Notes: a model not told the origin generated them from the sequence alone. Positions 3,094 to 18,561 are shown, counted from the stretch's first letter. The stretch is DNA of 64,000 nt from Escherichia coli (GCA_902500125.1 GCA_902500125.1_4132.1); one strand, 5' to 3'. Numbers and translations are program-made.

Positions 3094-3285
3094 ATGTTGA
3101 TTTATCAAAGTGATAATATTCGTGTTATGCAGCATCCCTACTTACAAATCTTTGATGTGCAGCAGTATATGGAAGGTGATGACCCAAGAACCTATGGTCG
3201 TAAGTATGATTACTTCACTGTAAAGCAGTGTAATAATATTAACGAAGTACGACAATTAGTTCAAGAACTTCAAAACAAAGGTTGA
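3094..3285 (+). CDS. hypothetical protein (63 aa)
   Basis: Internal ATG of track ORF 3040..3285 with AAGGA RBS; stop lies in terminator stem. Confidence 0.45.
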   Translation: MLIYQSDNIRVMQHPYLQIFDVQQYMEGDDPRTYGRKYDYFTVKQCNNINEVRQLVQELQNKG

Positions 3286-6014: not shown

Positions 6015-6129
6015 TTTAACTTTGGGACAACCATTCTTATTATGATATAATGTTTTATGTCATTCGATATAAATGACAACGGAACTATAAATATTATAGT
6101 AAAATTTATCTCTTATAGGAGTTATAAAA

Positions 6130-6703: not shown

Positions 6704-6967
6704 ATGGCTGAAACATTATCACTATATGCGTTAGTACTGTTATTTGTCGGATTTCTTCCCGCACTCATTACAGCCATTCGTGTTGTTAAACATGAAGCTG
6801 CATTGATTGTATGTAGTATTGGGTCGAACATTCTATTGTATTTCTTTTTGACAAATACTATTGTACTGTTTGCTTTCTTTATCATGATTCTGTGGGTACT
6901 TGTAATTCTCGGATTCTTCATTTGGTCATTGGTTGATCCTAAGAAAAAATCAGGAGAAGTGAAATGA
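6704..6967 (+). CDS. membrane protein (87 aa)
   Basis: Track ORF; hydrophobic. Confidence 0.5.
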   Translation: MAETLSLYALVLLFVGFLPALITAIRVVKHEAALIVCSIGSNILLYFFLTNTIVLFAFFIMILWVLVILGFFIWSLVDPKKKSGEVK

Positions 6968-7883: not shown

Positions 7884-9118
7884 AACATCGTAATGGTGGA
7901 CTAGTACAACACTCGGATAAATGGGCCGACCGAAATCGTCGCAAAAATAGTTATCAAGCAGGACAAGGTTCACGTGGTTCCAGAAACCAAGGAACGGGAC
8001 TTGCTGGTAAGGCAAACGCAGAAGCAGGTGAAGTTAAGAGTACTGAGAACATGACTGAGCTAGAAAAGCTACGTTATGTTAATTCATTGGGACTTCTTAA
8101 TGCTACACAAAAACAACGTCTAGCTGATATGGAACGTGAAGAAAAAGAAAAGTCTGCTCCTGCGAAAGAAGAACCAAAACAAGAAGCACCAAAGGCGGTT
8201 AACCCTGTCAAAGAACTGTCTGATAAGTTAGGTAAGATTTTTGCTAATAAACCACAACTTATCCAAGGTATTGTGAAAGAATTGCAATCTGTACCTAAAG
8301 AAGAATTAAAAGTCAAAGCACAAGCTGTACTTGATGCAATGAGTGGAAATACCAGTACTGAACCAACTGAAGTATTCAGTACTATAATGCGTGCACTTGA
8401 AGGTACGCAACAAGGTGATGTGCCTGCACAAGAGGAAGTAAGTCTTGAAAGCGTACTTAAAACATTTGATAGTATTGGTAAAGAAGACCGTGCTAATGCT
8501 CAACAAGTTAAGAATGTACTAGCTAAGTTAGAAAACCGTCTGGAAGGTAAAGACGATAAGATTAAATTAGTATCTGATGCAGTTAACGATGCACTTAAAT
8601 CTTATGTACAAGGTGAAAAGAGTCGTTTTGTAACTGCAATGGATGCTGCATTCAATACTATGAAAAAGTATGAAGCTGATCATGGTGAGAAGGTTACACG
8701 AGATGGTTATCTGATGCGTGATGATGAAGAAGGTGCAGTAGAACAGAATGATGTTCATTCAGACGAAGAAATTGATGACATGGAAGCTGAACTGTCACAA
8801 GACCGCCAAATGACTGAAAAATCCCATAACGAACTACAGAAATTAATGCAATGGGTTGCAGATGTTGGTGAAAAAGCTGGTGCTGATAAGAAGAGTATAA
8901 ACCGAAATCTTAGTTGGATTAAAGATAAAGTTGGTAACAACGCTCGTAAACTACAAAAAGCGTGGACTGATGTAGTGAATGGTGCTGTTGACATTGATGT
9001 TGAATCCGGTGAGGCATATGATTATGCATTGACTACACTTGATGACTCTTTCCGTGATTACGAAAATGGAAATGTAACTCCTTGGGAAAAGGATATCATG
9101 AGCAAATACGGTAAATGA
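7880..9118 (+). CDS. acidic, coiled-coil-rich hypothetical protein
   Basis: Track ORF 7859..9118; ATGA overlap with HNH stop chosen as start; N-terminal region paralogous to 6130..6513. Confidence 0.6.
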   Translation: MKHRNGGLVQHSDKWADRNRRKNSYQAGQGSRGSRNQGTGLAGKANAEAGEVKSTENMTELEKLRYVNSLGLLNATQKQRLADMEREEKEKSAPAKEEPKQEAPKAVNPVKELSDKLGKIFANKPQLIQGIVKELQSVPKEELKVKAQAVLDAMSGNTSTEPTEVFSTIMRALEGTQQGDVPAQEEVSLESVLKTFDSIGKEDRANAQQVKNVLAKLENRLEGKDDKIKLVSDAVNDALKSYVQGEKSRFVTAMDAAFNTMKKYEADHGEKVTRDGYLMRDDEEGAVEQNDVHSDEEIDDMEAELSQDRQMTEKSHNELQKLMQWVADVGEKAGADKKSINRNLSWIKDKVGNNARKLQKAWTDVVNGAVDIDVESGEAYDYALTTLDDSFRDYENGNVTPWEKDIMSKYGK

Positions 9119-9127
9119 TAAAACAAA

Positions 9128-9160
9128 AGGTTGACTTCGGTCAGCCTTTTTTGTTATGAT
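9128..9160 (+). terminator. terminator hairpin (UUCG loop) fused to promoter
   Basis: GGTTGAC-TTCG-GTCAGCC plus TTTTTT; TTGACT as -35. Confidence 0.6.
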
Positions 9161-9188
9161 GTTGGTATTAACTACAGAGGATAAAGTA

Positions 9189-9830
9189 ATGACTAAGCAA
9201 GACATATTCAAAACTTTAATTGACATTTTGCGTCCATCAAAAACTCGTTGTGCGATGGAGTTTGATATTCCTTATGCTGAACGCGTAATCTTTCCACAAG
9301 TTAAAGCTGCTGGACTTACTTTGCTTGGAATGGGGATGTACTCTGTAGTAGTTGAACATAAAAACTATCCTGGACGTGCATTTAAAGTAACCACTTCACG
9401 CTGGGATGGTTTTCGTGCTTATGCAAAGTACTGCATTGAAAACGCAGGAACCAAGTTTCTTCCAGTGATCTACAGTGCCAACGAACAAGGAAACTTTGGA
9501 TGGTATGAGATGGACAAGTACTATCCTATAATTAAACAAAAAAATAATTATGATGACTTTGTTAGTACTAAAATTGGAGATTTATATTCTTATGCACATG
9601 CTGGTCAGTACGCTACTTCAGTGAATGATATGCGTGGAAATTCTGAAGAGATTGCTATTGCAACGGTCGCTGCTAACATCATGAAAGAGTTTCACGGGCG
9701 TTTTGTACCAGACATTCATTCAAGTAATGTGATGATGGATAAAGATGGCAATGTATTCATTACTGATCCTCTTTCGTGTGATGTACGTAGAGAAATACCA
9801 GTTACTGAAGAAGATCCAGTTTTTTATTGA
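9189..9830 (+). CDS. protein-kinase-like protein
   Basis: GMGMYSVV..AFKV Gly-loop/Lys and DIHSSNVMMDKDGNVFITD catalytic-loop-like motifs; GAGGA RBS. Confidence 0.5.
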   Translation: MTKQDIFKTLIDILRPSKTRCAMEFDIPYAERVIFPQVKAAGLTLLGMGMYSVVVEHKNYPGRAFKVTTSRWDGFRAYAKYCIENAGTKFLPVIYSANEQGNFGWYEMDKYYPIIKQKNNYDDFVSTKIGDLYSYAHAGQYATSVNDMRGNSEEIAIATVAANIMKEFHGRFVPDIHSSNVMMDKDGNVFITDPLSCDVRREIPVTEEDPVFY

Positions 9831-9891
9831 CAGAACTGATGTTCTGGTGTATTCTTAATAAACCATAAAAATTGCGGTAAAGGATAAAATC

Positions 9892-10173
9892 ATGCGTTCA
9901 TTTGAAAACTTAATAGGTAAGCATCTTTTATCTGAAATTGATGCAGACGTTAAAGAATTATCCAAATCAAAAAGTTACATTCATTTGGATGAACTGTTTA
10001 TTAAGTACGGTGAGATTGGTTTTAAGTCATTATTTGTTTTTACTATGAAAGTACATAGTTTAAAGTACTTCGATTTGAGTTCTAAAGATGGTGAACCGAA
10101 TCTATATTACATGTATTACCTTAAGAACAAAGATGAAGCTAATACATTACTCTCTGAATATATATTGGGGTAA
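9892..10173 (+). CDS. hypothetical protein (93 aa)
   Basis: Track ORF; AAGGA RBS. Confidence 0.5.
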   Translation: MRSFENLIGKHLLSEIDADVKELSKSKSYIHLDELFIKYGEIGFKSLFVFTMKVHSLKYFDLSSKDGEPNLYYMYYLKNKDEANTLLSEYILG

Positions 10174-10175
10174 AA

Positions 10176-10514
10176 ATGGAACAATATTTTGAATTAATAA
10201 ACAAAGTATCATTTTATGTAGTATCTTTGGTTTGGGTGTATTATATGTTTTGCTATATTATTGCATTCTTCCGATATACTACTTTATATGAACGTATCTA
10301 CTATGATGCCCCAATTTCATTCTTGATGTTTTGTGCATGTACGTGGGGAATATTAGAAGTACTGATATGTGGGTATAGTACTGATGAATTAAATCTGGTA
10401 TCGGTGTTGACTGGGTTTTCATTTGTTGTTATGATAGCTGCCGTTCCAGTATGGTTGTTCTTTGGACTAGTTCATCGCATTGATATATGGCGTTCTAATA
10501 TCCCTGAAAAGTAA
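10176..10514 (+). CDS. membrane protein, paralog family (C-terminal RxN[ILM]PE)
   Basis: Track ORF; hydrophobic helices; ends WRSNIPEK. Confidence 0.55.
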   Translation: MEQYFELINKVSFYVVSLVWVYYMFCYIIAFFRYTTLYERIYYDAPISFLMFCACTWGILEVLICGYSTDELNLVSVLTGFSFVVMIAAVPVWLFFGLVHRIDIWRSNIPEK

Positions 10515-10517
10515 GGA

Positions 10518-10865
10518 TTGGAAATGATTTATTACACTAACATGTTTGCCTATGCTGTTGCTTGCATTTACATTGTTTACTTCTTATTCGGTGGAGTACT
10601 GTGCTTCTTTAAGTACAAAACGTTGTTCAACCGAATGTACCCAAATCATCCAATTGTAGTTGTACTTTTGATTCTTTCAGTTTCTCAAATAATCGTTGAA
10701 ACTACAATGGGTATCAGTAGTGTACATTATAGTTTTGGCACTATAGTAATTATTACTATGCTTATTGCATACATTTTAGTACTTGGATATGGTATCTTTG
10801 GTAATATTGGTATGAAAATGTATCATCGAATTAAAACATTACGTGATAATCTACCGGAGCGTTGA
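10518..10865 (+). CDS. membrane protein, paralog family
   Basis: Track ORF; ends LRDNLPER. Confidence 0.55.
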   Translation: MEMIYYTNMFAYAVACIYIVYFLFGGVLCFFKYKTLFNRMYPNHPIVVVLLILSVSQIIVETTMGISSVHYSFGTIVIITMLIAYILVLGYGIFGNIGMKMYHRIKTLRDNLPER

Positions 10866-10866
10866 T

Positions 10867-11211
10867 ATGTATAATTTGAACCTAATCTCATATATTATAA
10901 CAACACTGTTTACATTCTATGCCTTTGTTGGTATAATCCTACTGTACTTTAAATTTTATAAAGTGTTTAACCGTTTCTATCCTTCAATGGAGAATGAGTT
11001 TTTCTTTGTGTTGTACGTAGGTTACACATTAATGGCTACATGTTTCACTGTAGCCGATGGTGTCATCGGCATTAAAACTGATTCCCCAAATGGTAGTACG
11101 CTGGTTGCATTTATTCTTACTGGATTCCTTGCAACTTATATTGCCTTCATTACAACATGGTCAGTGGTTGAATTTCTCTTGCGACTACGAAAGAATATGC
11201 CGAATCGATAG
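10867..11211 (+). CDS. membrane protein, paralog family
   Basis: Internal ATG of track ORF 10843..11211 after GGAG; ends LRKNMPNR. Confidence 0.55.
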   Translation: MYNLNLISYIITTLFTFYAFVGIILLYFKFYKVFNRFYPSMENEFFFVLYVGYTLMATCFTVADGVIGIKTDSPNGSTLVAFILTGFLATYIAFITTWSVVEFLLRLRKNMPNR

Positions 11212-11220
11212 GAGACATAT

Positions 11221-11475
11221 ATGTTTGCGTTGCGTAATAAAAACACTAAAGAATTATTATGTATTGATACCGTATGGGATTGTGCGGGATCAACTACAGT
11301 TCTTGAAGAAGGAACTGGATATTGCGTGTTTGTTGTTCATGATAGGAATGAACTCGAATTATTACTTGCTGAGTTCAATGCTGGTGGTAATCCTAACAGT
11401 ACTGAATACCCTGAGATTATCAATCCAGCACCACCAGGCTCTTATGAAATTCTACAACTGTGGGAGTTGAAGTAA
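11221..11475 (+). CDS. hypothetical protein (84 aa)
   Basis: Track ORF; GGAG RBS. Confidence 0.5.
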   Translation: MFALRNKNTKELLCIDTVWDCAGSTTVLEEGTGYCVFVVHDRNELELLLAEFNAGGNPNSTEYPEIINPAPPGSYEILQLWELK

Positions 11476-11855
11476 TGCGTCAAATGCACAAAGTAACCGA
11501 GCTAAACAAGCGTCTGGTTAAACAATCAATGTTCGAGGATAAAGAGTCTTATTATAACTTTAAACGTGCTGTAGAGGCTGCTATCCACATTCAGAAGCTT
11601 AAAGAACGTGGTTGTATTATTCTGGAAAATGGGTCGGAAGTTGTAACGGATGACTTTAGTGTAGCGTTTGATGTTTCACCTGACGGGACGCTATCAATGC
11701 CCCGCTTAGGAACTGGAAACATGACTGTTTGGGTTGGCTTCACTATGGGGAATGTACCTGGTACTGTGTACGTAGATGATGCGGAATTGAAAGACAGTTT
11801 CAAAAACTTATCTTATCTTGAACCACAATACGCACATGAAATGAATTTATTTTGA
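11475..11855 (+). CDS. hypothetical protein
   Basis: TAATG overlap start inside track ORF 11460..11855. Confidence 0.5.
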   Translation: MRQMHKVTELNKRLVKQSMFEDKESYYNFKRAVEAAIHIQKLKERGCIILENGSEVVTDDFSVAFDVSPDGTLSMPRLGTGNMTVWVGFTMGNVPGTVYVDDAELKDSFKNLSYLEPQYAHEMNLF

Positions 11856-11931
11856 GTTGACAAACACATTCAGTACTGTATAATGCTTATCAAGGGGATG
11901 AACTTCTCATCCCTACAATCGAGGAACTACC

Positions 11932-12486
11932 ATGATTACTTTTAAGAAAACTGCTAACCACATCCATGAAATCTACATTAACGGTCACAAAGCTGGCCTT
12001 CTTCGTTTACTCGCCCATCATCCTGATGTTACCGTATCTGATAATGAACCTAAAGATTGGCGTGTATTTTTCTTTGGAAAGTACAGTGATTTTCAAGTAT
12101 CAAACCTGAAGAACATTCGTTCAGTATGCACGTTAACTGAAATTAAAGAAAAGTTAGAAAAAGCATTGAAAACTAATCCAGATGGTGTTCTTCCACCTGA
12201 TAACTTTGTAGAGAAAGGTTATGCATTAGCTCATTTCAAAGATGGTACTATTCAATCTATCAGTACTGAATATGAATATCAATGGACTGAGTACTTCACT
12301 TATGGATCGCGTAATACATTGATGGCTTCACGTAGTAAATTGGAAGAAGTACTGACTCGTATGAATGAACGCGAACGTCAATTTTATGACAAACCAGAAA
12401 TGTGGAGTTCAACTTACATTGACCGTATTGACTATGTTATTATGACTCCAATCTTTGACACTGCTTACTATGATTCTTTGAAATAA
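11932..12486 (+). CDS. hypothetical protein (184 aa)
   Basis: Track ORF; GAGGA RBS. Confidence 0.6.
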   Translation: MITFKKTANHIHEIYINGHKAGLLRLLAHHPDVTVSDNEPKDWRVFFFGKYSDFQVSNLKNIRSVCTLTEIKEKLEKALKTNPDGVLPPDNFVEKGYALAHFKDGTIQSISTEYEYQWTEYFTYGSRNTLMASRSKLEEVLTRMNERERQFYDKPEMWSSTYIDRIDYVIMTPIFDTAYYDSLK

Positions 12487-12497
12487 GGATAACTTAT

Positions 12498-12674
12498 ATG
12501 AAACTACGTACTCGTAATCGACTGATGGATGCACTGTACCATGAACAGCTTTCACTGAATGAAGTGAAGCGACAGTTAATGTACACATATCTGTTACCCG
12601 ATCGCATTGCAAAACAACGTGCTAAAGAATTGCTGAAAGAAGCAATCGAGTACTGGGAATCTGATTCGTACTAA
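12498..12674 (+). CDS. hypothetical protein (58 aa)
   Basis: ATG after AAGGA RBS; below track cutoff; coding-like composition. Confidence 0.4.
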   Translation: MKLRTRNRLMDALYHEQLSLNEVKRQLMYTYLLPDRIAKQRAKELLKEAIEYWESDSY

Positions 12675-12702
12675 TTGTCACGTTAATTAAGTGAGGCGAT
12701 AA

Positions 12703-12954
12703 ATGAAAATTTTATTAGTTCTAATACTACTAATTGTTTTACCATTTACGTTAGTATCCCCTGAACTTGCATGGAATGTGTTTGTGTACTTAGTATGTAC
12801 TATTGTAGTAAATGGTATCTTGTTCTTAGTTCTATTCATAAATGGAATAGGACACGGTGGAGGATGGACCAGTACTGCTGATATTGTACATAAAACCACT
12901 ATGTCTTTATTTGTAATGTGGAATTTATTCTGGACTTGGTTTGTGTTCTTCTAA
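12703..12954 (+). CDS. small membrane protein
   Basis: Track ORF; hydrophobic; GAGG RBS. Confidence 0.5.
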   Translation: MKILLVLILLIVLPFTLVSPELAWNVFVYLVCTIVVNGILFLVLFINGIGHGGGWTSTADIVHKTTMSLFVMWNLFWTWFVFF

Positions 12955-12962
12955 TTAAAAAT

Positions 12963-13334
12963 ATGAATATAGATTTGAAAGGTGCAACCCGAACTGTCAT
13001 ACTCATTGGGGAATATGCTATCAAGATTCCAACCTTTAAAAGTTGGAAGCTATTCTTAACAGGGATGATAGCTAACCTCAATGAACGTTCGTGGATGCAG
13101 TACTCCAATCGTAGTGATAGTAGTATCTGTCCTACGTTGTGGTCATCATGTACTGGACTAGTAACTGTACAGAAACGTTGTAAGCCAGTGCAACATAGGG
13201 GTTTATTTTGGGTGGAGTTGTGTGCTTTAGCATTGAATTCAGAGTTAAGTACTGACTTCTTCTATTCAGATGCGAAGCCAGAAAACTTTGGGTATCTGTG
13301 TGGTAAGTTGGTTAAACTTGATTATGGAGATTAA
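12963..13334 (+). CDS. mini protein-kinase-like protein
   Basis: GATRTVILIGEYAIK, DAKPENFG and KLDYGD in kinase motif order; internal ATG of track ORF. Confidence 0.45.
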   Translation: MNIDLKGATRTVILIGEYAIKIPTFKSWKLFLTGMIANLNERSWMQYSNRSDSSICPTLWSSCTGLVTVQKRCKPVQHRGLFWVELCALALNSELSTDFFYSDAKPENFGYLCGKLVKLDYGD

Positions 13335-13335
13335 T

Positions 13336-13605
13336 ATGTACGCATTGTATAATAAAGAAAAGAAACGATTTGCTAAGGTTGAAATTTCGATTGATACATT
13401 TGACATGTTGGAGTACTGTATTGTAACGGACTTATATGCTAACTTGTATTACGTTCTTGATGACGTATCAGTACTGCAACGATTGCTTGAGAATTCCAAA
13501 AGTCAATGCCAGGACATCCATGATGGTTCATCTTATGAAACACCTGAGTGTCCCCACGGGCAACTCGATGGGTATGAGATTGTTAAGTTGGGAATTGTTG
13601 AGTAA
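13336..13605 (+). CDS. hypothetical protein
   Basis: Internal ATG after GGAG within track ORF 13270..13605. Confidence 0.45.
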   Translation: MYALYNKEKKRFAKVEISIDTFDMLEYCIVTDLYANLYYVLDDVSVLQRLLENSKSQCQDIHDGSSYETPECPHGQLDGYEIVKLGIVE

Positions 13606-13670
13606 AAGGTATTGACACCGTACTCATTTAACTGTATTATGTATGTACACCAACTAATGAGGAATCGGAA

Positions 13671-14030
13671 ATGGCATCTTTATCTGAAATCACTGAACTG
13701 AATCCACTGGTAATTAGTACTGTTCAACGCACCAAGACGTTTTACTTCCGTCCTGCTGATGGATGGAAACGTGGAATGAATGGTGACTATCGAGTACTGG
13801 AAGATTCGCTCATCGAGCGTATCAACTCTGAACTACAGAAGTATGAAGGTGTTAAAGTTGTCCGTTCAACTTCTCGTTATTTTGAGTACTACATTGAGTC
13901 TTCAACTGTAAATGAAAACTCATCATTCTCGGTGGATAACACTGATATTCTTCGCAATGCAGTTGGTTTGCTATGCAACATTGCAGAAGAAATGGGATTA
14001 ACTATCACCACAATGAGTGAGTTAGAATAG
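13671..14030 (+). CDS. hypothetical protein (119 aa)
   Basis: Track ORF; GAGG RBS. Confidence 0.55.
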   Translation: MASLSEITELNPLVISTVQRTKTFYFRPADGWKRGMNGDYRVLEDSLIERINSELQKYEGVKVVRSTSRYFEYYIESSTVNENSSFSVDNTDILRNAVGLLCNIAEEMGLTITTMSELE

Positions 14031-14040
14031 AATAAAAAAA

Positions 14041-14073
14041 GGGTTGACTTAGGTCGGCCCTTTTGCTATTATA
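14041..14073 (+). terminator. terminator hairpin fused to promoter
   Basis: GGGTTGAC-TTAG-GTCGGCCC hairpin with wobble pairs, T-run, TTGACT/TATTAT. Confidence 0.55.
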
Positions 14074-14100
14074 TCTATATCGAAACGAAGGAGACAAACC

Positions 14101-14874
14101 ATGACCCGTCAAGAGAAAGCAATCCAAATCGAAAAAAACTTCAATAGCATGATGGCTGCACTGGAATGCCTTCTTGATACACAAGCTAACTCTATCAACT
14201 CTCTGATCGTATCAGGTAAAGGTGGTGTTGGTAAAACTTATAACGTTGACCAACGGTTGCAGAAAGCTGATGATAACTTTGAAATCGACTACAAGAAAAT
14301 CAGTGGTAAAGTAACTACTTTGGGTCTGTACGAAGCACTGTATCGTTCACGTCATGCCGCATCAGTACTGTTACTTGATGACGTTGATATCTTCTCTGAC
14401 GAGACTAATATTGATTTGCTTAAAGCTGTGTTGGATACGTCAGAGAAGCGTGTAGTTTCTTACGCGACTTCTGCTAAGTACCTGGAACAGCAGGGTATCC
14501 CTAAGCAGTTTGAATTCCGTGGTAAAGTAATCTTTCTGACTAACAAAAACCTGTCACAGATTGCTAAAGGTAAAAGCAGCTTAGCACCACACATCGATGC
14601 ACTGATCACTCGTAGTATCTTTGTTGACCTGCAACTGTTCACCAACGAAGAAGTGATGATTCACATTGAGAACATCATGAACAAAACTAACATCCTTGAA
14701 AACAATGGTGTTAACAAAAATGGTTGTAAAGCAATCCTGAATTGGATGCTGAACAACGAAGAACGTTTGCGTAGTCCATCACTGCGTATGCCAGTACTGA
14801 TCGCTGGTTTGTATAATAAATTCCCATACGATTGGGAATCAATGGCAGAGAATATGTTCCTTGAGAAAATTTAA
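14101..14874 (+). CDS. P-loop NTPase (Walker A GKGGVGKT, Walker B LLLDDVD)
   Basis: Track ORF; deviant Walker A resembling ParA/MinD-type; GGAG RBS. Confidence 0.65.
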   Translation: MTRQEKAIQIEKNFNSMMAALECLLDTQANSINSLIVSGKGGVGKTYNVDQRLQKADDNFEIDYKKISGKVTTLGLYEALYRSRHAASVLLLDDVDIFSDETNIDLLKAVLDTSEKRVVSYATSAKYLEQQGIPKQFEFRGKVIFLTNKNLSQIAKGKSSLAPHIDALITRSIFVDLQLFTNEEVMIHIENIMNKTNILENNGVNKNGCKAILNWMLNNEERLRSPSLRMPVLIAGLYNKFPYDWESMAENMFLEKI

Positions 14875-14941
14875 TTACATGTATTGACAGTACTACACTA
14901 TGGTAGTACTATAACTTAATATTCACCACCGGAGATACGAT

Positions 14942-15280
14942 ATGCTTGAGTTTTTTAATTCAGATACAATGATTAGTATTACTTTGATTTATCTGTTTGG
15001 TTTTTTCTTTTATCATGCACTGGTTGTAGTACTGTGGTATTTTAAAAAGAAAATTGTTTTTAAACTGTATCCAGTAAGGAATTCATCACTAGTTCTTTAC
15101 ACACTAGTTCAAGGTTTGTTTGCAATTGTTGGTCTTATGGCACACTTAATTTATTGTGCCAATCCTCACTTGAACTCAATCTCACAATATATTGTATTCT
15201 TTGGGTTGTTCATTTGGTTAGTTGTATACTTAATCCATCTCATTATTCATGGTAGAGATAAAATTCGCGGAGACTTCTAA
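14942..15280 (+). CDS. membrane protein, paralog family
   Basis: Track ORF; hydrophobic; GGAG RBS. Confidence 0.55.
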   Translation: MLEFFNSDTMISITLIYLFGFFFYHALVVVLWYFKKKIVFKLYPVRNSSLVLYTLVQGLFAIVGLMAHLIYCANPHLNSISQYIVFFGLFIWLVVYLIHLIIHGRDKIRGDF

Positions 15281-15627
15281 TGTTTGAAGCTTATCTTGAG
15301 TTTTTAAGGAGTAGTTCAGTTGCACATTCACTTGCAGGGATTATTCTAACAACTTATGTATCATTTTGGGTAGTTATGTTTCTAGGATGGTATTTTAAAC
15401 GACAATTCTATAAACGTAATGGTGAAGATTTTATGAATTCTGCCATTAATCAATCGTTGTTTGCATCAACATTGATTGCATGTATTGTAGCAACACTCAC
15501 AGGAAAGGTACTACCAGCTTTTTCCGCAGTTTACGGCACACTTGGGATGATATGTTTAACTTTTATATTGACCATTAAAATTTGTTGTGTTATGATTGAA
15601 CTTCGAAATAAGATACCGGAGGAATGA
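15280..15627 (+). CDS. membrane protein, paralog family
   Basis: Track ORF; ends LRNKIPEE; overlapping start. Confidence 0.55.
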   Translation: MFEAYLEFLRSSSVAHSLAGIILTTYVSFWVVMFLGWYFKRQFYKRNGEDFMNSAINQSLFASTLIACIVATLTGKVLPAFSAVYGTLGMICLTFILTIKICCVMIELRNKIPEE

Positions 15628-15962
15628 TGGAGTACTTTATTGATTTACTGCCGTGGTATATGAAAGTTAGTACCATGTACTATATTATTAGTGCTGGATT
15701 CTACTTTCTGATGTGGTTCTTTAAACGACCAATTTCAGTATTCATCGCTGATAACATGCTGCAATTAAAATTACACGCATGGTTTGGTATGGCGATGATT
15801 ATGCCTATTATTCACTACTCAATGATTAGTAGAGGTTTCCGTTCTAATGGTGAACCAATTGTATTAGTATTCTATTGGGGTTCAACTATTGCATATGTAA
15901 GTTTGTTGTTGTTCCCAGTCGTTCATAAGTTACGTGCTAAAGTTCCTGATGCGAGGTACTAA
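15624..15962 (+). CDS. membrane protein, paralog family
   Basis: Track ORF; ATGA overlap; ends LRAKVPDARY. Confidence 0.55.
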   Translation: MMEYFIDLLPWYMKVSTMYYIISAGFYFLMWFFKRPISVFIADNMLQLKLHAWFGMAMIMPIIHYSMISRGFRSNGEPIVLVFYWGSTIAYVSLLLFPVVHKLRAKVPDARY

Positions 15963-16276
15963 TGGATATAGTAACATTGATTTACACGTTGTATTCATTC
16001 TATTTCATTATGTGTTGGGTTGGATTTTTATTTGTACTCAAGATGTTTGATTATGTTGAAAAACAGATAAAAGAATTTTGTATTCCTTTTATCGGTTCAA
16101 CCATTATTAGTGTTTCTTGTGTGTATTTTTTGGTTTTTGATCCACCAGATAACACTGCAATGATTGACTTGATGTTACTACCAACAACTGTTACTTTTTT
16201 ATGTAGTCTGATGCCGCCGATTAGCCGTGGACTAACAGAATTTAGACGCAATCAAAAGCGTAAACGAGGGATGTAA
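15962..16276 (+). CDS. membrane protein, paralog family
   Basis: Track ORF; overlapping start. Confidence 0.55.
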   Translation: MDIVTLIYTLYSFYFIMCWVGFLFVLKMFDYVEKQIKEFCIPFIGSTIISVSCVYFLVFDPPDNTAMIDLMLLPTTVTFLCSLMPPISRGLTEFRRNQKRKRGM

Positions 16277-16644
16277 TGGAAATTGCTCTTATTATCTTAA
16301 CTGCTATGCTGTTTATTAGTACTGTGGTTATAATTGGTAAATTCTTTTGTGTATCATTTTTAGAAACGGTATACGATGAAATTGCTGATGATTATGAATT
16401 ACAAGCCGGATTTTTCATTACGTATTGGCTTAGTTTATTTTGTCTAGTCATTGCTTGGATTTTACATATCTTTAAATGGGGTATGGTAGACGGTGATCCT
16501 ATTATGGCAATTATTGTTCTAGTGTTTGGTATCCTTGGTGGTGCAGTGCATAATCTAATGGTTATCTGGCAAACTGTTCAATATGTTTTGGTTCCCTATT
16601 TCGAAAAGATGCACAGTACAATTAAAAAACGTAAACGAGGTTAG
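16276..16644 (+). CDS. membrane protein, paralog family
   Basis: Track ORF; overlapping start. Confidence 0.55.
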   Translation: MEIALIILTAMLFISTVVIIGKFFCVSFLETVYDEIADDYELQAGFFITYWLSLFCLVIAWILHIFKWGMVDGDPIMAIIVLVFGILGGAVHNLMVIWQTVQYVLVPYFEKMHSTIKKRKRG

Positions 16645-16645
16645 T

Positions 16646-17008
16646 ATGAACGGGATAGAATTATCTTTCGTTGGTCAATTACTAGTAATGGCGTATACAT
16701 TTATCTTCTCACTGAATGCATTCGTGTGCATTGGGAAGTACTTCCATAAGCGACCATTATCAAATATATATGATGTAATCCAAAAGAGATATAGTCCAGC
16801 ATATACTGTGTTGGGTACAGTATTCAATTTTGGTTTTATTGTATTAATAATTGGACTGTTCACATCCTCTTTGAATACAATAACCTTCGGTCTTATGATA
16901 TGTTCATTGGTATTAGCCGTAATTATATGTTGTTTAGTACTGCACCTTGTGGTACTATTGTATATAAAGATCTCTGAAATCCACCAACGTTTGGGTATGA
17001 GGAAATAA
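16646..17008 (+). CDS. membrane protein, paralog family
   Basis: Internal ATG of track ORF 16583..17008 after upstream stop. Confidence 0.5.
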   Translation: MNGIELSFVGQLLVMAYTFIFSLNAFVCIGKYFHKRPLSNIYDVIQKRYSPAYTVLGTVFNFGFIVLIIGLFTSSLNTITFGLMICSLVLAVIICCLVLHLVVLLYIKISEIHQRLGMRK

Positions 17009-17009
17009 T

Positions 17010-17381
17010 ATGAGTTACCGTGAGATATTTTCCATTATTTCAATTATTATGTTCAGTACTGGAACACTGGTATGGTTATTATACTTCTTCTGTATTAATC
17101 CAGTGTATAATATGTTATGTAATATTAAATCAAGTGCCGGATATATCACTTTTATGGTCTTTATGGGATATTATTGTCTAAGCATTTTAGGTGTTGTTTT
17201 GGTTGTTATATTTGATGTGGGACCAAATAGTGATGGTATGGAAATACATGAATTAATAACCATGTTTGGATGTATGATACCAACAGCACTACTGTTTGTA
17301 GCTACTGGTAGTGGATTGATAAAATTATATAATTATTTAAAATCCATTCATAATTCCATTCATAATAAGCGTATGTCATAA
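17010..17381 (+). CDS. membrane protein, paralog family
   Basis: Track ORF. Confidence 0.55.
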   Translation: MSYREIFSIISIIMFSTGTLVWLLYFFCINPVYNMLCNIKSSAGYITFMVFMGYYCLSILGVVLVVIFDVGPNSDGMEIHELITMFGCMIPTALLFVATGSGLIKLYNYLKSIHNSIHNKRMS

Positions 17382-17388
17382 TAAAAAA

Positions 17389-17410
17389 TCCAGTACTATT
17401 AAGTACTGGA
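17389..17410. other. AGTACT-containing hairpin
   Basis: TCCAGTACT-ATTA-AGTACTGGA inverted repeat between genes. Confidence 0.4.
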
Positions 17411-17423
17411 TGTATAAGGAGTT

Positions 17424-18086
17424 ATGATGAAATCAAAATTAGGTTTGTTTTATAAAAACTATTTTGTTAAACAACGTAAATTTATAAAAAAATATTTCTC
17501 TGGCGAGAAGTCTAGTCCTATAATCTTTAAAAGACCAAGTTATAATACTTACTTAGCTGGTGCTAAACAGTCTAAGAAATTTATTACTCTTTTACATAAA
17601 AACAAAATTAAAGCTTCTTATGTTGAAACGAGAAGAAACTCATCAATAACTCCTGGTGATTTTATTGAGTACGGATGTTTCAATATTAAGTACAATGATA
17701 ATACATACTTTATGGATATTGATTGTAATACATCCAATCTTTTTAACATTGTAGTAAATCCATTAAAACAATATAATGTTTATGGTGATTCTATTATCAA
17801 ATTAATCAAAAACAAAGATAGCTTTGATTTTGAAATAAATGTTTTAGATGATAATTTTGACGAAGTACCAGTAAACCCTGAAATCTGTGATATTTTAAAC
17901 AGTTTAAAAGGTAGTACCTACACTATATCATCTGATTTAATGTTTCAGTACTCATTAATCCATAAAGATATTGAAAAGTATATTGAATGCTCCAAAATTT
18001 TGAATTATCTTTACGATGAATTTAAAAAGAGTTCTAAAATAACCGCATACACTTTGTACAATATTCCTAAAATGGTGAATCTTTGA
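17424..18086 (+). CDS. hypothetical protein (220 aa)
   Basis: Track ORF; GGAG RBS. Confidence 0.55.
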   Translation: MMKSKLGLFYKNYFVKQRKFIKKYFSGEKSSPIIFKRPSYNTYLAGAKQSKKFITLLHKNKIKASYVETRRNSSITPGDFIEYGCFNIKYNDNTYFMDIDCNTSNLFNIVVNPLKQYNVYGDSIIKLIKNKDSFDFEINVLDDNFDEVPVNPEICDILNSLKGSTYTISSDLMFQYSLIHKDIEKYIECSKILNYLYDEFKKSSKITAYTLYNIPKMVNL

Positions 18087-18490
18087 CAAATACAGTACTG
18101 GCAACTCCACCGTCTGTAACATATTGTCCAGTACTGTAAATTTGTATACCATCGGTTAAGTAAGTTCTGTATAAAGTTGCTGTAACATATACGTTATTCA
18201 TATTCATCTCTATTGGTAGTACACATTTGGTATAGGCTGAGACATCTGTTTGTGTACCTATACCTAATTGACCTGCGTTATCGCCTGTGTTATAACCAGT
18301 TGCGTAAACACCTAATGAAGTTATAATATGATTAGAAAAATATGAATAACCCAAACTCTTGAGATTCTCTACTGTACAACGTACCATCTGACATAAGGGC
18401 AAAAACTGTTGTATCAGATGAAGCTATTTTTGTTACAGAAGGTTGTATGTTCTGTTTTGATGATGTGATAATTCTTCGAAAGGGTAGCAT
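18067..18490 (-). pseudogene. truncated, frameshifted remnant of MLPF-tag family
   Basis: ATG at 18490 after GGAGGA encodes MLPFRRIITS.. then stops; family C-terminus (LGIGTQTDVS..TVFVKDSPF) continues in another frame. Confidence 0.5.
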
Positions 18491-18536
18491 TGTATCCTCC
18501 AAATGTAAATCGTTATTATATTTAGGACAAAAAAAT

Positions 18537-18555
18537 GCCAGTACAAAATACTGGC
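18537..18555 (-). terminator. terminator hairpin
   Basis: GCCAGTA-N-TACTGGC stem with T-run on minus strand. Confidence 0.55.
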
Positions 18556-18561
18556 TTTATT

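Follow-up and report, generated by a model that had tools for sequence, protein, structure and literature searches.

Class I holins such as lambda S105 are small proteins with three transmembrane (TM) helices, an N-out/C-in orientation and a charged cytoplasmic C-terminal tail, and the partners of endolysins of the signal-anchor-release (SAR)-like type are two-helix pinholins, not class I holins. T4 Imm and Sp and P22 SieA are small inner-membrane proteins of superinfection exclusion, while the MGF110 proteins of African swine fever virus (ASFV) are small membrane or endoplasmic reticulum proteins that form a multigene family in a large eukaryotic DNA virus. Here, we compare with these systems a family of ten small genes in a 64,000-nt stretch of DNA recorded under Escherichia coli (GCA_902500125.1), which we refer to as the window. 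The ten open reading frames (ORFs), m1 to m10 in what follows, encode products of 104-123 aa and lie on the plus strand in two clusters, with three genes at 10176-11211 (cluster 1) and seven at 14942-17381 (cluster 2). All ten are found where an earlier reading made from the sequence alone (the sequence-only reading) had placed them, on either side of a kinase-like gene and a P-loop ATPase gene.

By megablast, positions 9000-18000 are 95-99% identical to 21 records of Escherichia and Salmonella jumbo phages, including CRJP21, phAPEC6, slurp01, 121Q and PBECO4 (genus Asteriusvirus). On these matches, the window is an Asteriusvirus, a 121Q/phAPEC6-like E. coli jumbo phage. One description of the RaK2/121Q-group phages puts the share of their genes without a function at more than 80% (PMC7247149). 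GenBank and PHROGs label the genes of this family as hypothetical or 'membrane protein'; our literature search found no paper on the family, and the descriptions of these phages that we consulted do not discuss it.

Relationship, topology and motifs of the ten proteins

BLASTP and phmmer find few links among the ten proteins: m1, m2 and m3 are well linked, and m4-m5, m8-m9 (phmmer ties m9 to the m8 group) and m1-m10 are linked weakly. PHROGs splits the ten into at least seven families, all of 'unknown' function, with E-values of 1e-51 to 1e-70 per member except for m3 (3e-4) and m9 (0.05); m5 also matches phrog_16874, a 'membrane protein', at 7e-6. Such scattered links and separate families fit an explanation in which the ten ORFs are unrelated small hydrophobic proteins that resemble each other through composition and through ribosome-binding sites shared at their 3' ends. 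Because simple pairwise comparison was unconvincing, we gathered syntenic orthologue groups from 121Q, TH47, UE-S1, ph0011, WPEC3, A4, Turkey5, Klebsiella phage RaK2 and Erwinia phage Hallingskeid, aligned each group and compared the resulting profiles with hhalign.

By hhalign probability, the full-length profiles link m1-3 to m4 (96%, 101 columns) and m5 (93%, 97 columns), m4 to m5 (96%, 104 columns) and m6 (94%, 109 columns), m5 to m6 (96%, 91 columns), m8/9 (91%, 102 columns) and m7 (84%, 94 columns), and m8/9 to m7 (88%, 100 columns) and m10 (97%, 107 columns). Reversed partners stay at or below 16%, and against any family group the other small membrane proteins from these phages stay at or below 9%. 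The likeness proposed in the sequence-only reading thus extends beyond hydrophobic composition, with 84-97% over 91-109 columns. Over the ORFs of the window, a hidden Markov model (HMM) of the family picks out exactly ten at 60-95 bits, the next ORF reaching 6.5 bits. When one orthologue group at a time is left out of the model, the window members for which a figure was returned score 17-42 bits (Table 1), and every subgroup is placed above all 572 negative ORFs, the best of which score 6.5-13.3 bits and which include five other small membrane proteins of the same phages; m1 was merged with the identical 121Q copy in this test, and the lowest score of its group is 15.6 bits. Against 1.84 billion representative proteins, the family profile returns 41 matches at E <= 0.001, of which 39 are 56-127 aa long and two are long proteins matched in short stretches. 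So small a number of matches argues that the profile is not driven by composition.

Removal of the last ten residues weakens several links, which is in line with unrelated ORFs, as is the presence of GGAG or GAGG for the next gene in the last codons. Even so, tail-less m1-3, m4, m5, m6, m8/9 and m10 remain linked at 45-92% (m1-3/m4 73%, m4/m5 92%, m5/m6 82%, m5/m8-9 45%, m8-9/m10 87%), as compared with at most 1.8% for reversed controls, and the invariant F within [WK][FY]F[KC] lies 80 residues from any ribosome-binding site. The exception is m7, whose links fall to 6% or less. This makes m7 the least secure member; its support comes mainly from its tail, from its score when left out of the model and from its constant place between m6 and m8 across all genera. 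Overall, these comparisons indicate that the ten genes are paralogues of one ancient family. At least seven 'unknown' PHROGs are thereby united in a single superfamily with defined motifs and topology.

Table 1. Positions of the family members and of the associated genes and signals in the window (bits, score against the HMM from which the member's own group was left out, unless stated otherwise).
Feature	Position	Strand	Length (aa)	After helix 1	C-terminal tail	Matches and scores	Remarks
m1	10176..10514	+	112		WRSNIPEK	phrog_19285, E 4e-59; family HMM 89.8 bits	three TM helices; cluster 1; type I
m2	10524..10865	+	113		LRDNLPER	phrog_19285; BLASTP to m1 1e-9; 17.1 bits	
m3	10867..11211	+	114		LRKNMPNR	31.4 bits	ATG 10867, GGAG 8 nt upstream
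m4	14942..15280	+	112	WYFKKK	GRDKIRGDF	phrog_19454; 25.7 bits	first of cluster 2
m5	15280..15627	+	115	WYFKRQ	LRNKIPEE	phrog_19046; 40.7 bits	
m6	15624..15962	+	112	MWFFKRP	LRAKVPDARY	phrog_27396; 19.0 bits (best negative 11.0)	
m7	15962..16276	+	104		FRRNQKRKRGM	phrog_33258; 19.1 bits (best negative 8.2)	
m8	16276..16644	+	122	GKFFC	MHSTIKKRKRG	phrog_26405; 30.6 bits	type II
m9	16646..17008	+	120	GKYFHKRP	IHQRLGMRK	18.0 bits	ATG 16646, GAGG upstream
m10	17010..17381	+	123	YFFC	IHNSIHNKRMS	phrog_27618; 41.6 bits	last of array
Hairpin ATCCAGTACT-ATTA-AGTACTGGAT	17388..17411	.					directly after m10; T-run on minus strand only
Sigma-70-type promoter TTGACA-N17-TACTAT	14884..14912	+					spacer hairpin AGTACTAC..GTAGTACT; 30 nt before m4
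Promoter-like TTGACA-N17-TATTCT	9827..9855	+					spacer hairpin CAGAAC..GTTCTG; ahead of 93-aa ORF and m1-m3
P-loop ATPase, T4 NrdC.10 homologue	14101..14874	+				tblastn ~40% identity to T-even nrdC.10; phrog_1250	
T7 gp0.7-type Ser/Thr kinase	9156-9830	+				phrog_15752, E 2.5e-97	just upstream of cluster 1
Kinase-like short ORF	12918-13334	+				phrog_4301	DAKPEN...DYG catalytic-loop-like stretch; between clusters

Each protein shows three Kyte-Doolittle peaks, in register near residues 3-18, 41-60 and 66-89. The three to four helices expected in the sequence-only reading thus come to three in each protein and not four. The N-terminal and loop 2 segments are acidic or neutral, and most members have a basic loop 1 and a basic tail, from which loop 1 of m8 and the tail of m5 depart. 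By the positive-inside rule, this charge pattern suggests an N-out/C-in insertion with both conserved motifs on the cytoplasmic side. AlphaFold2 models of m5 (predicted local distance difference test score, pLDDT, 76.6; helices 2-11, 13-38, 42-73 and 80-109) and m10 (pLDDT 79.1; helices 3-26, 32-38, 41-68 and 79-122) share the same plan, in which a short cytoplasmic helix separates helices 1 and 2, and a short turn connects helix 2 to a helix 3 that continues as a cytoplasmic C-terminal helix.

Conserved columns were scored over 68 members with less than 70% mutual identity. They include an optional N-terminal M-x-E-[FY]-[ILF]-N, a [WK]-[FY]-F-[KC] where helix 1 reaches the cytoplasm (F in 62/67; F39 in m5) with a Y five residues later, a D-[PG] in the turn that joins helices 2 and 3, and a C-terminal L-x-x-[LIF]-[RH]-x-[KN]-[IL]-[PK] ([RH] in 64/65; R109 in m5). 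Helices 2 and 3 and the periplasmic turn are diverged between paralogues and kept within each orthologue line. We distinguish type I (m1-m6), with W/Y-F-K-R/K and an [IL]-P-[ED] tail, from type II (m7-m10), with mostly G-K-F/Y-F-C/H and a tail of [RH]-x-x-[ILQ] followed by K/R-rich sequence. The tail R-x-N-[ILM]-P-E/D of the sequence-only reading occurs literally in m1 and m2 (m3 has P-N), whereas m5 and m6 carry R-x-K-[IV]-P-[ED], m4 has R-D-K-I-R-G-D-F and m7-m10 have [RH]-x-x-[IQL] and then the K/R-rich tail; the form truly common to the family is [RH]-x-[KN]-[IL]-[PK].

Distribution, gene order and expression signals

The family is carried by jumbo phages of Escherichia, Salmonella, Klebsiella and Erwinia, and all carriers with an identified host are Enterobacterales phages. 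A word-indexed protein search with a 19-sequence alignment returns 23 proteins, all in this phage clade, and a search of IMG/VR for related loci returns 121Q and RaK2 themselves and nothing further. No array stands beside the nrdC.10-type ATPase in Xanthomonas phage XaC1, Pseudomonas phage PA5oct or T6. The m4 orthologue of ph0011 is labelled 'Phi92_gp233'; tblastn of m4 found no match in phi92. The family is thus essentially confined to the enterobacterial jumbo-phage clade.

Cluster 2 invariably lies between the NrdC.10-like ATPase on its upstream side and minus-strand RCC1-like genes on the other. Its members number seven or eight in Asteriusvirus, eight in RaK2 (ORF309-316), about ten in Hallingskeid and six in a metagenomic contig (L014) that also carries denV and an HNH gene. 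Hallingskeid has a separate small cluster of two members, followed, as in the window, by MFA-type soluble proteins, and Turkey5 and JNE01 also have a separate small cluster, so the two-cluster layout is old. This layout and the seven subtypes are conserved in Klebsiella phage RaK2 and an Erwinia phage. The window members share 25-39% identity with their positional orthologues in RaK2 (m6/ORF312 38%, m10/ORF315 39%, m8/ORF314 34%), the orthologue of m7 being ORF313, and the within-genome paralogue pairs that were measured are 25% (m1-m2) and 21% (m8-m9) identical. All ten genes are under purifying selection, with ratios of nonsynonymous to synonymous substitution (dN/dS) of 0.05-0.47 (m1 0.13-0.20, m8 ~0.1).

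The regions fetched from each full locus hold 8 to 11 copies, a range that becomes 8 to ~12 when RaK2 ORF316 and the unclustered or second-cluster copies of Hallingskeid are included. The copy number was fairly called high for a phage, but it is not peculiar to this genome, as the count in related genera, with the layout unchanged, is 8 to ~12. An extra m4-like gene, 50% identical to m4, is found in 121Q, UE-S1 and ph0011; RaK2 ORF309 and ORF310 are a duplicate pair (42% identical); Turkey5 has two m7-type genes; A4 has one cluster-1 gene instead of three; and m9 is frameshifted in Salmonella phage SD-6_S16. These local duplications and losses are a birth-and-death pattern. An eleventh family member, gene 224 of 121Q (L001 10365-10706), is absent from the window. 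The split m7 of 121Q (CDS 228 and 229, L001 11726-12041) was set aside as a case of gene loss, as it comes down to a single additional T within a T6 run, which may have arisen in sequencing.

In every genus examined, nearly every junction between family genes is a gap or overlap of 0-4 nt (TAATG, ATGA), with the Shine-Dalgarno sequence of the next gene (GGAG/GAGG) within the final three or four codons of the gene before it, as in CCG GAG GAA TGA tg, CGC GGA GAC TTC TAA tg, CGA GGG ATG TAA tg and ATG AGG AAA TAA tatg. The start of m5 overlaps the stop of m4 (TAATG), and m6 overlaps m5 by ATGA. The starts of m2, m3 and m9 are likely internal ATGs with good Shine-Dalgarno sequences; for m2, ATG 10524 is the equivalent of the annotated start in 121Q and has AGGA 7 nt upstream, and the mechanical ORF begins at TTG 10518. 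The [RH]-x-[KN]-[IL] core lies upstream of the constraint set by the ribosome-binding site, and P-[ED] is kept where no such site is formed (m1 CCT GAA, RaK2 CCA GAC and the A4 cluster-1 copy), which is a further point against unrelated ORFs.

Each cluster is preceded by a promoter-like sequence with a hairpin in its spacer (Table 1). The one before m4 is kept, with variable loops, in six further Asteriusvirus genomes (121Q, TH47, UE-S1, ph0011, WPEC3 and Turkey5), and none is found between the ATPase and the array in Hallingskeid and A4. Sequence similar to the hairpin after m10 follows the last array gene in ph0011 and Turkey5. As consensus matches, TTGAC[AT]-N16-18-TAnnnT has 37 sites on the plus strand of the window and 1 on the minus strand. 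The neighbourhood is of an early type: the window has the gp0.7-like kinase, and relatives carry denV and HNH endonuclease genes in the corresponding interval. Together with the sigma-70-type consensus and an Imm-like small ORF nearby, this neighbourhood points to early transcription by the host polymerase and thus to a probable early synthesis of the family proteins. No transcriptome for Asteriusvirus or Alcyoneusvirus turned up in the searchable literature.

Further promoter-hairpin combinations recur in the window. A plus-strand cassette, AAAAGGG-TTGACT-yCGG-TCAGyCCCTTT-GyTATTATAT, is repeated at 3282, 6523, 7285, 9131, 14044, 42466, 45854, 48861 and 51614 and consists of a terminator-like hairpin with a -35 hexamer within its stem, followed by a -10 hexamer; it resembles the promoter-early stem-loop (PeSL) cassettes of T4-type phages. 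Other recurring types are TTGACA...AGTACTGTATAAT and TTGACAGTACT...AGTACTAT. The T4-type late-promoter octamer TATAAATA occurs once in 64 kb (6086-6093) as compared with 13.5 +/- 3.4 in shuffled sequences, a strong depletion, and it is not found near the arrays; the octamer is the T4 consensus and may not be the late promoter of this clade.

Candidate functions

We tentatively rank first, at somewhat less than an even chance, a reading of the ten genes as a battery of factors for host-envelope takeover, exclusion or counter-defence and not as lysis holins. Host RNA polymerase would transcribe both clusters early from the sigma-70-type promoters into tightly translationally coupled operons, and the proteins would be inserted into the host cytoplasmic membrane shortly after infection. 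On the three-helix scaffold, the N-terminus would be periplasmic and the first loop and C-terminal helix cytoplasmic, so that the cytoplasmic motifs common to all paralogues may act as handles and helices 2 and 3 with the periplasmic turn would be specific to each paralogue. Each paralogue would have a membrane target of its own, belonging to enterobacterial hosts or to competing phages, and might act by superinfection exclusion or by neutralizing membrane-acting defence effectors. This battery is placed first because of the restriction to one host clade, the birth-and-death dynamics of copy number, the early context and the combination of conserved handles with variable helices. Among the roles suggested in the sequence-only reading, superinfection exclusion and membrane or host-envelope roles are plausible candidates.

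Several observations weigh against such a battery. Searches of Pfam, NCBIfam, PADLOC and the PDB, by sequence and by fold, returned no significant or informative match to a known function, the only PADLOC match being that of m4 to PycTM (E 0.026, 12 bits), which is not significant. The proposed early timing is drawn from promoter consensus and neighbourhood. Since the next Shine-Dalgarno sequence is embedded there, part of the R/G/E-rich extreme tail reflects a constraint at the nucleotide level, and the membership of m7 leans heavily on the last ten residues. Finally, genes for exclusion or counter-defence are usually patchy and fast-evolving, whereas here seven ordered subtypes are under purifying selection, and subtypes that are ordered, coupled and constrained fit a fixed multi-subunit assembly at least as well.

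Such an assembly is the main rival, although we consider it unlikely, at roughly one chance in five. The paralogues would be subunits of one hetero-oligomeric inner-membrane complex in fixed proportions, maybe docked through their C-terminal peptides to the NrdC.10-like AAA+ ATPase, and the complex would carry out a membrane function specific to these phages, such as anchoring of replication or assembly, or transport. Subunits made in fixed proportions would account for the overlapping junctions with embedded Shine-Dalgarno sequences in every genus examined, for the subtype order shared by Asteriusvirus and RaK2 and for the purifying selection on all copies, but copy number differs among viable isolates, with lineage-specific duplications and losses, and SD-6_S16 carries its frameshifted m9. 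A link to the ATPase is suggested by its position directly upstream of the array in RaK2, A4, Turkey5, Hallingskeid and the metagenomic contig, with no intergenic promoter in Hallingskeid and A4, and by conserved motifs that all lie on the cytoplasmic side. However, cluster 1 sits 4 kb from the ATPase, and the ATPase occurs without the array in T-even phages, XaC1 and PA5oct. In TH47, moreover, a divergent ATPase allele (59.7% identical to that of the window) stands beside array genes that are 63-90% identical, which is unlike co-evolution.

A more elaborate form of this idea, which we regard as improbable, is that the paralogues and the ATPase build an inner-membrane machine, with a ring or raft of family proteins whose C-terminal peptides recruit the ATPase so that the host membrane is remodelled or compartmentalized. 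Enterobacterial jumbo phages might, for instance, assemble their giant virions on such a machine or move macromolecules with it.

A holin or antiholin-like role in timing membrane permeabilization at lysis, also suggested in the sequence-only reading, is disfavoured and appears very unlikely. The length of 104-123 aa, the three TM helices, the predicted N-out/C-in topology and the charged C-terminal tail would suit it, and the published descriptions that we consulted name no holin for this clade, but ten copies in two operons with sigma-70-type promoters and early-type neighbours would not. In 121Q, the endolysin gp532 is encoded at 254,191-255,117, ~140 kb from the family (105,829-106,864 and 113,623-116,404). 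There is no holin-family match in Pfam (E up to 1), NCBIfam or PHROGs, and the N-termini lack a dual-start motif. By the general pairing rule given above, moreover, a SAR-like endolysin would not call for a class I holin. The endolysin of this clade has an N-terminal TM domain of this SAR-like kind (PMC5259590).

That the ten ORFs are unrelated is scarcely credible and already largely refuted by the profile comparisons described above.

With 8 to ~12 copies retained in a constant two-cluster arrangement in at least three host genera, the family offers a concrete and cheap experimental target of two small operons, in RaK2/121Q-group jumbo phages, which are isolated as therapeutic agents against E. 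coli, Klebsiella and Salmonella. If the exclusion or counter-defence battery is correct, bacterial viruses would have in it a counterpart to the multigene families of large eukaryotic viruses; if instead the proteins form a multi-subunit assembly with the NrdC.10 ATPase, they would provide the first functional handle on that widespread ATPase.

Neighbouring genes and comparison with known systems

The nrdC.10-type ATPase is present in more than 1,300 records of T4-like and jumbo phages; a sequence search found no relative of solved structure, and our literature search turned up nothing on NrdC.10 function. Its 'KGGVGKT' was considered as a deviant Walker A motif of the ParA/MinD type and rejected, as RaK2 has 'GAPGIGKT' and Pfam gives only weak AAA matches. 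The divergent ATPase of TH47 (L003 7001-7768) has its reverse in WPEC3, where the ATPase is 98% identical to that of the window and m10 is 62% identical, and this contrast indicates mosaic exchange inside the locus.

The two kinase-like genes of Table 1 are spaced within 4 kb. Between the clusters, 12703-12954 (+) encodes a hydrophobic protein of 83 aa whose identity among Asteriusvirus genomes is 96-100%, as compared with only 70-90% for neighbouring genes; hhalign relates it to RaK2 ORF298 (80%), it is not a member of the ten-gene family, and searches of Pfam and PHROG gave no match. Another ORF at 6704-6967 (+), of 87 aa and three helices, likewise has no match in Pfam or PHROG and shows weak similarity by hhalign (55%, 60 columns) to Hallingskeid CDS0113, which is annotated as 'superinfection immunity protein'. 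The plus-strand genes at 11221-11475, directly after m3, and at 13270-13605 are phrog_8563 paralogues (E 1e-21 and 6e-24), and the MFA-type proteins that follow the small family cluster in Hallingskeid (L021 4094-4853) are similar to this pair at the N-terminus.

On the far side of cluster 2, genes with RCC1 ('regulator of chromosome condensation'-like) repeats, at 18067-19767 (-) and onward, converge on the array. This arrangement is kept in RaK2-like phages, including XaC1, which is without the array. Also present in the 121Q genome are genes for a ClpA-like ATP-dependent protease and for a late sigma factor (L019; 121Q 298257-300545 and from 321985); the protease is possibly relevant if the cytoplasmic tails of the membrane family are recognition peptides.

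When compared to class I holins, the family shows a similar size (~105-125 aa), three TM helices, an N-out/C-in plan and a charged cytoplasmic tail. It differs in having ten copies and early-type promoters, in lying far from the endolysin, and in lacking a dual start and any sequence or profile similarity to a holin family. With T4 Imm and Sp and P22 SieA, it shares the character of small phage inner-membrane proteins that are apparently early and encoded in a plastic early region of a T4-related genome, beside denV and nrdC.10 homologues. No homology to Imm or Sp was found (no Pfam match at E up to 1 and no PHROG so annotated), and, unlike these proteins and SieA, which have one or two helices and are encoded by a single patchy gene, the family has three helices and forms an ordered array across genera. 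PHROG 19285, 19454, 19046, 27396, 33258, 26405 and 27618, together with 16874 'membrane protein', represent the same genes, kept there as separate families. An analogy in genome organization is offered by ASFV MGF110, where small membrane proteins of a giant viral genome are likewise encoded in tandem by paralogues that have diverged, shaped by local duplication and loss; the two have no sequence relationship, and the setting here is a bacterial inner membrane. From small early phage membrane proteins in general, the family is set apart as a large, ordered array of anciently diverged paralogues.

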